Origin: an uncultured Bacteroidales bacterium
GTDB taxonomy: Bacteria; Bacteroidota; Bacteroidia; Bacteroidales; WCHB1-69
NCBI GenBank assembly: GCA_905236885.1
Contig: CAJOQK010000120.1
Span: 1 to 53,245 of the forward strand
Direction of reading: 5' to 3'
DNA length: 53,245 bases
Below the pieces are notes generated by a model. The model saw only the letters and a list, made by a program, of their open reading frames with translations, made no database searches and was not told where the DNA came from. Made by a program: the position numbers and the translations under genes. The first letter of the stretch is position 1. The number at the start of each line of letters is the position of its first letter. Positions 50,148 through 53,064 of the stretch are shown one piece after another.

Positions 50148-50328
50148 ATATTTTTTTTCTTTGAAAATATTAGTTGGAGAGGGATTTTGTGTTTTATTTT
50201 TGAGTATTTTTGCAAAATGAAAAAATGAAAAAATCATGGACGAACAATTTTTTGAAAACATTGAACGCTTGATAGAGCTGGAAAAAGAAAACGTCAGAGG
50301 CAATTGGGCGTTGTGTTGAAAAAATGAT

Positions 50329-50364
50329 TATATTTGCAAATTGGAAAAGATATGGTTATTTTTG
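50329..50364 (+). promoter_or_regulatory. Two plus-strand -7 motifs upstream of the DUF2075-type gene
   Basis: TATATTTG at 50329-50336 and TATTTTTG at 50357-50364. Two more TATTTTTG copies lie at 50195-50202 and 50205-50212. Confidence 0.4.
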
Positions 50365-50370
50365 CGAAAA

Positions 50371-50472
50371 ATGGCGGTGAATATAATAGATAATACTCAT
50401 AGATTCAAAACTATAGACTTCTTCTGCGGAGGAGGCGGAATGATAAATAAAATAATGAATATTCTAAAATGA
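50371..50472 (+). pseudogene. Remnant of the 5' end of a DNA (cytosine-5) methyltransferase gene (motif I only)
   Basis: My own translation gives MAVNIIDNTHRFKTIDFFCGGGGMINKIMNILK*. FKTIDFFCGGGG matches the AdoMet-binding motif I (xxDLFxGxGG) of C5-MTases. The ORF stops after 33 codons, and its TGA overlaps the ATG of the next gene. Confidence 0.55.
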
Positions 50473-52523
50473 TAAATCGCTTTTTTTATCAATCATCTAT
50501 CTCTGACTTCCTTAGTTCTTCTGTTGATATTATCTTTGGACAGATGTCGCGTGCTGATGAGATGGATACTGCTGCCACTCAGAAATATGCGTGGGAACAG
50601 GAAATCTCCATAATGAAAAAGGTTTTAGTGCCTTTTAAAAATGAAGAGGCATGGATTCTTTTTGAATATTCTATTCCCCGTCTTGGAAAAAGGGTTGATG
50701 TTGTTGTTTTGTTGAGAGAGAGAATATTTGTTATAGAATTTAAGGCGGGAGAAACGGATTTTCTCCATCAAGACGTGGATCAAGTGATGGATTATGTACT
50801 TGATCTAAAAAACTTCCATCAAGGGAGTAATGACCGTAGGATTGTTCCAATTTTAGTTGCTACAGAAAGCAACCAGCATTCTACAGTTTGTCAACTTTCA
50901 CATTATGATGATGGCGTTTATGAGCCATTGCTGACTGATGCCTTTCATCTTGGTGAAATTATGAATCTGGTGTTATCTGATAACATTCCAACCGGATCCT
51001 ATAAAGTCGCTTTATGTGATTGGGCACGAAGTCGTTATTCGCCAACTCCTACCATCATTGAAGCAGCACGTTCGCTTTATTTGAATCATAGTGTAAAAGA
51101 TATTACCCGACACGAGGCAGAAGGTGAACAACTAGAACGTACTACAAAATATGTACAGCAAGTGATACATGAAACAAAGGCAAGAGGAGGGAAGAGTATT
51201 TGTTTCGTAACAGGTGTTCCTGGAGCCGGCAAAACATTGGTTGGACTTAATGTTGCTGTACAACAGGAGTCCGACGAGGACTTAGCTGTATATCTTTCGG
51301 GCAATGGACCTTTGGTAGCTGTTCTTACAGAAGCATTGACCCGCGACAGACAGGCACAAGAAAAGGCAAAAGGTAACAAGATAACGAAAAAAGAAGCAGA
51401 ACGTGAAGTGAAGCGATTTATACAGATTATTCATCGTTATCGTGATAATATGCTTGGCAAAGTGAAGGTCGTGAACGGTTGCTTGGAAATAGATCCAGAA
51501 AAAGAACTCAAAGATCATATTGCGGGCTATGGTGAAGTAGAGAATATTGCCATATTTGATGAGGCGCAGCGTTCGTGGGATAAAGAACATATTGCTGGAT
51601 GGCTTAATAGAAAGAAGGGATTTGCAGACTTCCCAATGTCAGAAGGAGAATTTTTGATTTGGTCACTTGATCAACGGAAAGATTGGGCGGTGATTGTTTG
51701 TCTTGTTGGAGGGGGACAGGAAATCAATACTGGAGAGGCTGGTATTGGCGAGTGGATTCGTGCGCTTAATGAGTCTTTTCCTGACTGGCAGGTGTACATT
51801 TCAAGTCAGCTTACTGCCAAAGAATACGCAGAAGGTAAGGTTAAAGAGTTATTAGATAAAAAGCTAAATGTCACTTATTCTGACAATCTGCACCTTGCTG
51901 TCTCCATGCGTAGTTTCCGAGCTGAATGTTTGTCGAATATGGTGCATTATCTATTGGATGGAGAATCTGGAAAAGCGAAAGAGGTTTACGAAAGCATTGC
52001 AGACAGATACCCTATTGTACTTACAAGAGATATTGAAAAGGCAAAAGAATGGTTGCGCAGTAAAGCGCGTGGAAATGAACGATATGGTATGGTTGTTTCA
52101 TCAAAAGCTTATCGTTTGAAACCATTGGCAATAGATGTTCGTTGCAAACCGGATACTGTACATTGGTTTTTGGATGACATTAATGATGTGCGTTCATCTT
52201 TGTTTTTGGAAGATGCTGCCAGTGAATTCGATATACAAGGGTTGGAATTGGATTGGACATGTCTTGTGTGGGATGGAGATTTGCGATATAATGGTACTGC
52301 ATGGGATTATTTTGAATTCAACGGAGGTAATAAATGGAATCGTATCAATAAAGAAGAACGTAAAGCATACCAAATCAATGCTTATCGTGTGTTGCTAACT
52401 CGTGCCCGACAAGGAATGGTCATTTGTGTGCCAAAAGGAGATGACCAAGACCGTACAAGATTACCACAGTTTTATGATGGCACTTACGAATATTTGAAAT
52501 CAATTGGATTGGAAGAAATATGA
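50469..52523 (+). CDS. DUF2075-type protein: N-terminal PD-(D/E)xK-like nuclease module fused to a P-loop SF1-helicase-like (Schlafen-helicase-like) NTPase
   Basis: FEYSIPRLGKRVDVVVLLRERIFVIEFK (E..D..ExK pattern), Walker A GVPGAGKT, Walker B-like IAIFDEAQR, VCLVGGGQEI, and C-terminal YRVLLTRARQGMVICVP (UvrD_C-like). Confidence 0.75.
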   Translation: MINRFFYQSSISDFLSSSVDIIFGQMSRADEMDTAATQKYAWEQEISIMKKVLVPFKNEEAWILFEYSIPRLGKRVDVVVLLRERIFVIEFKAGETDFLHQDVDQVMDYVLDLKNFHQGSNDRRIVPILVATESNQHSTVCQLSHYDDGVYEPLLTDAFHLGEIMNLVLSDNIPTGSYKVALCDWARSRYSPTPTIIEAARSLYLNHSVKDITRHEAEGEQLERTTKYVQQVIHETKARGGKSICFVTGVPGAGKTLVGLNVAVQQESDEDLAVYLSGNGPLVAVLTEALTRDRQAQEKAKGNKITKKEAEREVKRFIQIIHRYRDNMLGKVKVVNGCLEIDPEKELKDHIAGYGEVENIAIFDEAQRSWDKEHIAGWLNRKKGFADFPMSEGEFLIWSLDQRKDWAVIVCLVGGGQEINTGEAGIGEWIRALNESFPDWQVYISSQLTAKEYAEGKVKELLDKKLNVTYSDNLHLAVSMRSFRAECLSNMVHYLLDGESGKAKEVYESIADRYPIVLTRDIEKAKEWLRSKARGNERYGMVVSSKAYRLKPLAIDVRCKPDTVHWFLDDINDVRSSLFLEDAASEFDIQGLELDWTCLVWDGDLRYNGTAWDYFEFNGGNKWNRINKEERKAYQINAYRVLLTRARQGMVICVPKGDDQDRTRLPQFYDGTYEYLKSIGLEEI

Positions 52524-52906
52524 AACACCTTCACGTTGTTGCCGCCATTATCAATGACTCCAAAAATCACATTTTTGCCACCCAGCGAGGATATGGCGAG
52601 TGGAAGGATTTTTGGGAATTTCCTGGTGGAAAAATGGAGGATGGAGAGACACCAGAAGAGGCTCTTGTGAGGGAAATTCGCGAGGAACTGTCGGCAGAGA
52701 TTAGCGTAGATAAATTTCTTTGTACGGTGGAGTATGACTATCCTAAGTTTCACTTGACTATGCATTGCTTTCTGTGTTCGTTGCAGACGGATGTGCTGCA
52801 CTTGAATGAACATGAAGCAGCTAAATGGCTCTCGAAGGATGAATTGGATAATGTGTGTTGGCTGCCGGCAGATTTGGAAGTGATAGAAGCGTTAAAGAAA
52901 CAATAG
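52520..52906 (+). CDS. MutT-like Nudix hydrolase ((deoxy)nucleoside triphosphate pyrophosphohydrolase family)
   Basis: Nudix box GGKMEDGETPEEALVREIREELSAEI; 128 aa. The ATG overlaps the stop of the upstream gene (ATGA at 52520-52523). Confidence 0.85.
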   Translation: MKHLHVVAAIINDSKNHIFATQRGYGEWKDFWEFPGGKMEDGETPEEALVREIREELSAEISVDKFLCTVEYDYPKFHLTMHCFLCSLQTDVLHLNEHEAAKWLSKDELDNVCWLPADLEVIEALKKQ

Positions 52907-52935: not shown

Positions 52936-53064
52936 ATGGTAGCACGAAGATATTATTACTCGGATTCCATTACGTACTTTCTGTCTCGGAGAAATGACGA
53001 GATAGAGGGTGCTTTGTTGGCTTCACAGCATGTCATCTTTTCTGTGCGATTAAAAGATAATTAA
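52936..53064 (+). pseudogene. 42-codon fragment resembling the N-terminus of the DUF2075-type protein
   Basis: My own translation gives MVARRYYYSDSITYFLSRRNDEIEGALLASQHVIFSVRLKDN*. Residues 5-27 align with residues 4-26 of the 684-aa protein (RFFYQSSISDFLSSSVDIIFGQM): about 10 identities in 23 plus F/Y and S/T matches. Confidence 0.45.

Follow-up and report, generated by a model that had tools for sequence, protein, structure and literature searches.

A nuclease-helicase of the Nhi-like defence type and a translationally coupled, facultative Nudix hydrolase in an uncultured Bacteroidales bacterium

Contig CAJOQK010000120.1 of an uncultured Bacteroidales bacterium (GenBank assembly GCA_905236885.1; its whole length of 53,245 nucleotides (nt) is the window of this report) carries near its right-hand end two overlapping genes, one for a 684-amino-acid (aa) nuclease-helicase and one for a 128-aa Nudix hydrolase. 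Single-gene defence of the kind to which the large gene belongs has been validated before, and PADLOC has entries for the two genes, the candidates PDC-S41 and PDC-S07. What is new here is that these two are recurrently coupled, which PADLOC treats as unrelated. We think it probable that the large protein is an autonomous effector resembling Nhi-like, and that the Nudix protein is a facultative accessory that would clear modified deoxycytidine triphosphate (dCTP) from the nucleotide pool. An earlier, sequence-only reading of the window had proposed a candidate two-gene defence system in which the Nudix protein might be an obligate partner; the defence context and the non-random linkage are borne out below, whereas an obligate or undescribed two-gene system is not.

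The 684-aa nuclease-helicase

Both open reading frames (ORFs) and the ATGA by which they overlap are present as the sequence-only reading had described them (Table 1), and every motif quoted there for the large protein was found in it: FEYSIPRLGKRVDVVVLLRERIFVIEFK at aa 65-92, GVPGAGKT at aa 249-256, IFDEAQR at aa 362-368, VCLVGGGQEI at aa 410-419 and YRVLLTRARQGMVICVP at aa 639-655. In Pfam the large protein matches PF09848 (SLFN-g3_helicase, formerly DUF2075) at 9.7e-72, and the small one matches NUDIX (PF00293) at 2.2e-20 (73.5 bits against a cutoff of 21.1) and NUDIX_4 at 2.3e-17, as the earlier domain calls had anticipated. Residues E66, E90 and K92, the Walker A residues (GxxGxGKT) and D364, E365, Q367 and R368 are invariant in an alignment of 52 homologs at 33-59% identity, and D77 is conserved in at least 90% of it. 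Nuclease-family hidden Markov models (HMMs) gave weak matches only (Cas4, 0.033; HSDR_N_2, 0.081). An AlphaFold2 model built from the 52-homolog alignment (mean predicted local distance difference test score 88.9, predicted template-modelling (TM) score 0.86) has a strand-strand-strand-helix-strand core over the nuclease region, followed by two RecA-like lobes. The top PDB fold matches of this model are SLFN11/SLFN14, UPF1, Dna2 and phage T4 Dda, all SF1B-type helicases apart from one nuclease-helicase. A family-profile sequence search of PDB gave P-loop-level matches only, so that the domain could be placed only by comparing folds. The protein thus combines the two parts that define Nhi and Nhi-like: an N-terminal PD-(D/E)xK nuclease domain, identified by conserved residues, predicted core and alignment, and a C-terminal DUF2075 (SF1B-type) helicase with intact Walker A and B motifs.

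The PADLOC PDC-S41 profile matches the large protein over its full length at 4.9e-266 (882 bits, aa 3-684 on profile positions 2-653 of 657). Nhi-like, which has a nuclease at its N-terminus together with DUF2075, is verified as defensive, having been cloned and shown to protect as a single gene; its sequence, SG141 of Bacillus cereus FSL H8-0482, is marked verified in the supplementary table of Millman et al. (bioRxiv 10.1101/2022.05.11.491447). The window protein is homologous to SG141, with 28% identity over 393 aa (E 4e-37) in a collinear alignment that covers the FEY...D...E-x-K nuclease core, the Y-x-P-[ST]-P-[ST]-x-x-EAARS linker, Walker A, YLSGNGPLV, IFDEAQR-x-WD and G-x-GQEI-x-x-GE. 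The PADLOC model of Nhi from Staphylococcus epidermidis matches in the P-loop region only (6.7e-5), in agreement with the remark of the same preprint that Nhi and Nhi-like have a common architecture and no common sequence. Thus the window protein, Nhi-like (SG141) and Nhi (Bari et al.) all join a PD-(D/E)xK N-terminus to a DUF2075/SF1B helicase in one polypeptide; the relation to the other two is only distant, however, the window protein has about 70 additional aa, and the window gene and about one quarter of its gut-clade relatives are followed by a coupled Nudix gene. The main text of the preprint on Nhi-like does not mention Nudix, and our literature search found no mention of DUF2075 together with Nudix. 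By homology to Nhi-like and Nhi, the 684-aa enzyme would act alone, as an ATP-driven nuclease-helicase attacking invading or replicating foreign DNA.

PF09848 is also the Pfam family of the helicase-like domain in Schlafen group III proteins (SLFN5/11/13/14), but the window protein has a PD-(D/E)xK domain where the Schlafen AlbA_2 RNase would stand. Since superposition is limited to the helicase half, the TM-scores to SLFN11 and SLFN14 reach only about 0.3, and membership of Schlafen group III was rejected, as the protein has no PF04326 match in Pfam and the likeness is confined to the helicase domain. At another locus (L127:2057-3610) a protein with Schlafen AlbA_2 and HATPase_c_4 domains lies two genes upstream of a YgjP-like metallopeptidase-Nudix pair, so that the other half of the eukaryotic Schlafen architecture is present in the same islands as a separate gene.

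The DUF2075 family is large (about 944 clusters at 50% identity with E<1e-30) and widely transferred. Copies 50-83% identical to the window protein occur in Bacteroidota, Firmicutes, Kiritimatiellia, Planctomycetota, Proteobacteria and one Methanobrevibacter metagenome-assembled genome (MAG). The exact window protein had no match in the contig index, and its close homologs P0004 and P0017, together with P0121, an identical Nudix, served in its place. Of 72,556 plasmid records 46 gave protein-level matches, none of which reached 60% identity and most of which were from Bacillus at about 27%; of 50,697 phage records one matched; because such records match so rarely, we rejected carriage by mobile elements and regard the family as mainly chromosomal. 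The Methanobrevibacter copy (JAFRFD010000059.1, goat gut) is a full-length homolog, 55% identical, and reflects either a gene transfer between domains in the gut/rumen habitat or a contig assigned to the wrong bin. In other genomes the neighbours of DUF2075 genes are typical of defence islands: a 1,560-aa DEAD+UvrD protein, UvrD/GajB-like helicases, AAA_11/12-DUF2726 proteins, type IV-like ResIII helicases and an McrB-like AAA_5 protein. DUF2075 NTPases have also been described as adjoining modification-dependent endonucleases in defence islands (Lutz et al., PMC6765204). In the window itself the G+C fraction falls to 0.34-0.42 across the pair from 0.46-0.59 upstream, where a gene cluster for polysaccharide synthesis and the gene of an M20 peptidase lie. 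Both the AT-richer patch and the defence-island-like setting noticed by the sequence-only reading are upheld.

The Nudix hydrolase and its linkage to DUF2075 and other genes

The 128-aa protein belongs to the Nudix superfamily, with G37-x5-E43-x7-R51-E52-I-x-E55-E56 matching the corresponding part of the box GX5EX7REUXEEXGU. The box had been called perfect; its catalytic RE-x2-EE is intact, whereas its terminal G is replaced by S58, and the same G is missing in Bacteroides fragilis Q5LBB1 (PDB 3GWY), the closest solved and characterised relative (42% identity over the whole length, E 4.5e-24). The two proteins also have a YP-F--TMH-FLC block in common. Both are members of PDC-S07, Q5LBB1 at 142.9 bits and the window protein at 5e-50 (167 bits, aa 1-127 on profile positions 3-130 of 135), as are nine Nudix genes from other contexts. 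Among the NCBIfam models, TIGR00586 (MutT) is passed marginally (100.6 bits against a cutoff of 97.9), and the E. coli-type MutT model PRK10776 (93.5 against 148) and the NudG model PRK10546 (75.3 against 156) are not reached. E. coli NudG/Orf135 is another near counterpart of the window protein, which scores slightly higher with MutT than with NudG models. Q5LBB1 was screened on 74 Nudix substrates by Nguyen et al. (PMC5158307), with kcat/Km values of 6.7e6 M-1 s-1 on 5-Me-CTP, 4.8e6 M-1 s-1 on 5-Me-dCTP and 4.4e6 M-1 s-1 on 5-hydroxymethyl-dCTP; it cuts mainly the alpha-beta bond, and canonical NTPs are far poorer substrates. By this homology the window Nudix most likely hydrolyses 5-substituted (d)CTP (5-methyl-, 5-hydroxymethyl-dCTP) to the monophosphate.

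We examined the linkage of the two genes from both sides. In 80 species-representative genomes that carry a DUF2075 gene, a Nudix gene lies immediately downstream of it in 11 (gap -4 to +65 nt) and immediately upstream in 2. For these 13 adjacencies, the frequency of Nudix genes elsewhere in the flanks would give an expectation of about 1.7 (Poisson P = 3e-8), and all of them fall in the gut/rumen clade (13/48 versus 0/32 in an environmental clade of about 50% identity; Fisher P = 0.001). Adjacency is thus non-random, and it recurs across phyla, in Bacteroidales, Lachnospiraceae, Clostridiales and Kiritimatiellia. The other 67 family members lack an adjacent Nudix gene. At several further loci the Nudix gene closes a longer array, for example DUF2075, AAA_11/12-DUF2726, Nudix (L027) and DUF2075, a 106-aa ORF, a type IV-like helicase, Nudix (L033). 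A Pfam scan of 10 over-long DUF2075 homologs (734-894 aa) found no DUF2075-Nudix fusion. Pairwise identities of the DUF2075 proteins and their Nudix partners correlate weakly (Mantel r = 0.29, P = 0.02), and strong co-evolution of the two was rejected on this value. Directly after the DUF2075 gene of one Lachnospiraceae locus (L040:8164-9177) lies a 337-aa Nudix protein fused to a class-I S-adenosylmethionine-dependent methyltransferase domain.

Seen from the Nudix gene, the partners are varied. Of the 80 metagenomic Nudix genes closest to it (75-84% identity), 61 have a gene tightly upstream on the same strand and 19 do not. This upstream gene is a PLD-ResIII helicase-DUF3427 protein (PADLOC mREase_IV, a type IV methyl-directed restriction endonuclease (REase), 3.8e-190) at 14 loci, Vsr at 10, DUF2075 at 7, a YgjP-like metallopeptidase at 7, RhuM (PDC-S05) at 3, PDDEXK_4 (PDC-S26) at 2 and a singleton at 18. 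At least six further families of upstream genes are joined to the clade as tightly as DUF2075 is. Genes downstream of the Nudix gene are equally variable, so that it does not hold a fixed core position next to a hotspot of insertion. Rather, it is a tail gene of promiscuous habit, found in translational coupling behind many genes of restriction type. The recurrence of the 4-nt overlap arises partly because genes of the clade start ATGAAA, so that a TGA in the frame of the upstream gene is built in. Partner classes share no DNA in the 60 nt 5' of the Nudix ATG at the 80 loci, homology beginning at the ATG itself; a common cassette boundary (an integron- or attC-like junction) was rejected, as there is no conserved DNA before the ATG. 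In a neighbour-joining tree the DUF2075-linked Nudix copies are interspersed among Vsr-, YgjP-like- and type IV-linked copies.

About 40% of the tight partners are related to 5-methylcytosine (5mC), namely Vsr and the methyl-directed restriction enzymes with a DUF3427 sensor, DUF3427 being a modified-base sensor (PMC6765204). One locus is a tight five-gene operon (L113:221-5054) of a Sau3AI/MutH-like endonuclease, a C5 DNA methyltransferase, Vsr, a PDC-S07 Nudix and DUF488, all of whose junctions lie between -4 and +9 nt; together these genes make up a complete 5mC restriction-modification (R-M) system with mismatch-repair and nucleotide-sanitising accessories. The substrates of Q5LBB1, 5-Me-dCTP and 5-hydroxymethyl-dCTP, fit this Vsr/Dcm and methyl-directed REase company. 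Like the window pair, the dcm-vsr type operons and DUF3427 type IV REases, the commonest upstream partners, have 4-nt or near-zero junctions; in contrast to them, the upstream gene of the window has no recognisable modified-base sensor, and no intact methyltransferase is nearby. A motif search in 80 genomes likewise found no intact C5-methyltransferase next to DUF2075. A small gene with a TSCPD domain (PF12637) recurs beside PDC-S07 Nudix genes (L012:8860-9117; L001:6647-6904); this domain otherwise occurs in class II ribonucleotide reductases, and the gene is a second one with a flavour of nucleotide metabolism in the islands.

Close relatives of the window record both movement and loss. The DUF2075-Nudix-relic block (for the relic see Table 1) is found at 96% nucleotide identity in L012 with other chromosomal surroundings, a class-II aminoacyl-tRNA synthetase gene and GldD lying upstream of it and TSCPD and Vsr genes downstream. 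In L001-L003 a full-length, 98% identical DUF2075 gene is followed directly by PfkB, with homology to the window extending from 2 nt before the ATG to 5 nt after the stop. At the junction (L001:3970-4040) the string ATGAAACAC, the first three Nudix codons, stands in frame with a truncated TSCPD-like ORF. The junction is a deletion scar, at which the Nudix gene, the relic and a 68-aa gene were lost secondarily and the nuclease-helicase gene stayed intact. The DUF2075 ORF alone is 96-98% identical in nucleotides between L001:1916-3977, L006:1653-3714 and L012:5948-8009, the neighbouring PfkB only 85%; exchange has been precise to the gene, as the homology reaches no further than 2 nt ahead of the ATG and 5 nt past the stop.

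What the pairing may mean

We read the locus as two separately mobile defence-island modules that would here share one transcript. The second module is the one found behind type IV methyl-directed REases, Dcm-Vsr R-M operons, YgjP-like, PDC-S26, RhuM and Nhi-like genes, and it may prevent modified cytosine nucleotides, whether salvaged or made by phages, from entering DNA synthesis. That it clears 5-substituted dCTP is the most economical reading because of the 5mC-related partners and the substrate profile of Q5LBB1; among the roles that the sequence-only reading had listed for the Nudix protein, the evidence favours the removal of modified dNTPs such as 5-methyl-dCTP from a nucleotide pool. 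Two mutually compatible benefits might follow beside a nuclease. Salvaged 5mC or 5-hydroxymethylcytosine (5hmC) from nuclease-degraded modified DNA would be kept from host DNA, sparing the chromosome off-pattern modification and with it self-restriction, extra T:G mismatches or mutagenesis, and precursors would be destroyed for phages that replace cytosine with 5mC or 5hmC. Several observations weigh against this reading or limit it. The substrate is extrapolated from a homolog at 42% identity, and the higher NCBIfam score for MutT than for NudG makes 8-oxo-dGTP a possible substrate. There is no indication that the DUF2075 enzyme senses or makes modified nucleotides. The loci of the census come from metagenomic contigs with a rumen/gut bias, and the tree of the 128-aa Nudix is poorly resolved. 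The enrichment, the deeply divergent Nudix lineages and the occurrence of both gene orders would also fit a tighter functional tie. DUF2075 genes that lack an adjacent Nudix often have a PDC-S07 Nudix 3-6 kb off (L001, L004, L024, L027, L030, L033), the scarred L001 having its second PDC-S07 copy 3.1 kb away, and supply of the Nudix protein in trans is possible.

The tighter tie in its full form, a dedicated two-gene system with the Nudix protein as obligate partner (safety catch or antitoxin, signal degrader or stoichiometric subunit), appears improbable to us. Much about the window pair would suit it: the ATGA overlap, the want of an internal promoter motif, the equally low G+C of both genes, the block that travels as a unit between two contexts (window and L012), and a strongly enriched adjacency that recurs from Bacteroidales to Kiritimatiellia. 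The consistent co-occurrence and co-evolution expected of an obligate two-component or toxin-antitoxin system were nevertheless not found, with 13 of 80 DUF2075 genes next to a Nudix gene (none in the environmental clade) and 7 of 80 Nudix relatives behind DUF2075. The verified Nhi-like homolog functions as a single cloned gene, an intact gene 98% identical to that of the window persists after deletion of its Nudix neighbour, the Nudix clade is equally coupled to at least six unrelated upstream genes, co-divergence is weak and no fusion was seen; these findings speak against the obligate or antitoxin-like partner that the sequence-only reading had entertained. It had also taken the pair to be undescribed, and PADLOC already lists both genes, as separate single-gene candidates with full-length HMM matches to the window proteins. 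Their physical coupling lies outside its definitions, as does the coupling of PDC-S07 to type IV REases or Vsr.

That the Nudix gene acts by itself against phages, depleting or corrupting the nucleotide pool, and shares operons through tight packing of the islands, is in our judgement unlikely, though the best placed of the competing accounts. It is a single-gene candidate in PADLOC, about a quarter of its loci (19/80) have no tight same-strand upstream gene, and an integron-borne Nudix cassette, brc167, has been reported among phage-resistance cassettes. One of the substrates of Q5LBB1, 5-hydroxymethyl-dCTP, is the DNA precursor of T-even-type phages. Against this stand the recurring 4-nt overlaps with nucleases related to modified DNA, which suggest a supporting role, and the literature searched, in which no experimental test of PDC-S07 (nor of PDC-S41) was found; the account also overlaps with the anti-modified-phage branch of the reading we prefer. 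A housekeeping MutT (8-oxo-dGTPase) that lies beside an inserted defence gene by chance would explain the TIGR00586 match and the public names of close homologs ('8-oxo-dGTP diphosphatase'). We give it little credit, as the flanking genes vary by locus on both sides, the Nudix gene has the low G+C of the island, is gained or lost between near-identical loci and is present twice in some islands (L001), and the closest characterised homolog prefers 5-substituted CTP/dCTP. Least probable of all is an RNA-directed enzyme of the RppH/NudC type that strips the RNA of phage or host of its 5' triphosphates or NAD caps and so feeds or regulates the nuclease-helicase: weak similarity to RppH and Nudt16-like models exists (7.9e-11 and 5.7e-4; NCBIfam/Pfam), but these scores are far under the family cutoffs, the best matches are to MutT/NudG-type dNTPases, and a protein of 128 aa has no extra RNA-binding elements.

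The preferred reading, an autonomous nuclease-helicase with a facultative Nudix accessory, can be carried a step further, to PDC-S07 as a general pool-guard accessory of modification-aware immunity, serving autoimmunity control, denial of precursors to phages with modified cytosine, or both. We hold this extension tentatively. If true, the Nudix enzyme would block salvaged modified cytosine that might trigger the cell's own methyl-directed or Nhi-like nucleases, phages with modified cytosine would be forced back under classical restriction, and the DUF2075-Nudix pair would be one instance of a widespread, undescribed coupling of nucleases to nucleotide-pool sanitation. The lead lies in PDC-S07 itself: this very common PADLOC candidate has a close relative that hydrolyses 5-methyl- and 5-hydroxymethyl-dCTP, and its preferred place, often with translational coupling, is downstream of enzymes concerned with the making, repair or attack of methylated DNA. 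The presence of a nucleotide-sanitising enzyme in defence islands may thus have a simple rationale, in control of autoimmunity or in action against phages with modified DNA. In annotation, such Nudix genes should be taken neither for housekeeping MutT by default nor for the partner of whichever nuclease precedes them.

Other elements around the pair

Promoter-like TAnnTTTG motifs (the Bacteroidetes-type -7 motif) have 22 plus-strand matches in the window, four of them clustered shortly upstream of the large gene (Table 1) and none from position 50600 to the window end. This distribution and the gene overlap suggest that the large gene and the Nudix gene share one transcript, the motifs lying upstream of the large gene only. 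Scans for sigma-70 promoters and intrinsic terminators found no more sites in the window than in shuffled sequence.

Table 1. Coordinates of features in the window (positions counted from its first nucleotide)
Feature	Coordinates	Strand	Basis
108-aa ORF with HExxH string (HETVH) and hydrophobic segment	49760-50086	-	ORF; no Pfam match
Cluster of four TAnnTTTG motifs (Bacteroidetes-type -7 promoter motif)	50195-50364	+	Consensus match only
Short ORF with C5-methyltransferase motif-I-like string FKTIDFFCGGGGM	50371-50472	+	ORF only; remnant not confirmed
Nhi-like nuclease-helicase gene (684 aa; PADLOC PDC-S41; DUF2075/SLFN-g3 helicase)	50469-52523	+	ORF, PF09848, PDC-S41, AlphaFold2, homology
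PD-(D/E)xK nuclease core, aa 61-131 (E66, D77, E90-x-K92)	50649-50861	+	Conservation, AlphaFold2 strands, weak HMM
SF1B-type helicase/NTPase domain, aa 242-655	51192-52433	+	Pfam range (PF09848), invariant columns, motifs, fold
Walker A	51213-51236	+	Motif coordinates
Walker B/DEAQR	51552-51572	+	Motif coordinates
ATGA stop/start overlap	52520-52523	+	Read from sequence
MutT/NudG-like Nudix hydrolase gene (128 aa; PADLOC PDC-S07)	52520-52906	+	Pfam, PADLOC, TIGR00586, 3GWY homology
Nudix box	52628-52696	+	Motif
Relic, first ~30 codons of a second DUF2075-family gene	52936-53028	+	N-terminal profile 12.8 bits, tblastn 10/23 identities

The methyltransferase remnant that the sequence-only reading had placed upstream of the pair was not confirmed: the short ORF there gave no Pfam match at E<0.1 and none with an ad hoc C5-methyltransferase N-terminal profile, and what is left is the motif-I-like 13-mer alone. 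The fragment downstream, said to resemble the N-terminus of the large protein, fared better. A profile of the first 60 residues of the family, run on all six frames of the window, found only the true start (56.5 bits) and the relic (independent E-value 3e-5). Its position after the Nudix gene suggests either an earlier Nudix-then-DUF2075 order, as at L020 and L023, or an older allele that was replaced. On the other side of the pair, the 108-aa HETVH ORF is conserved beside the pair in L006, L008 and L009.

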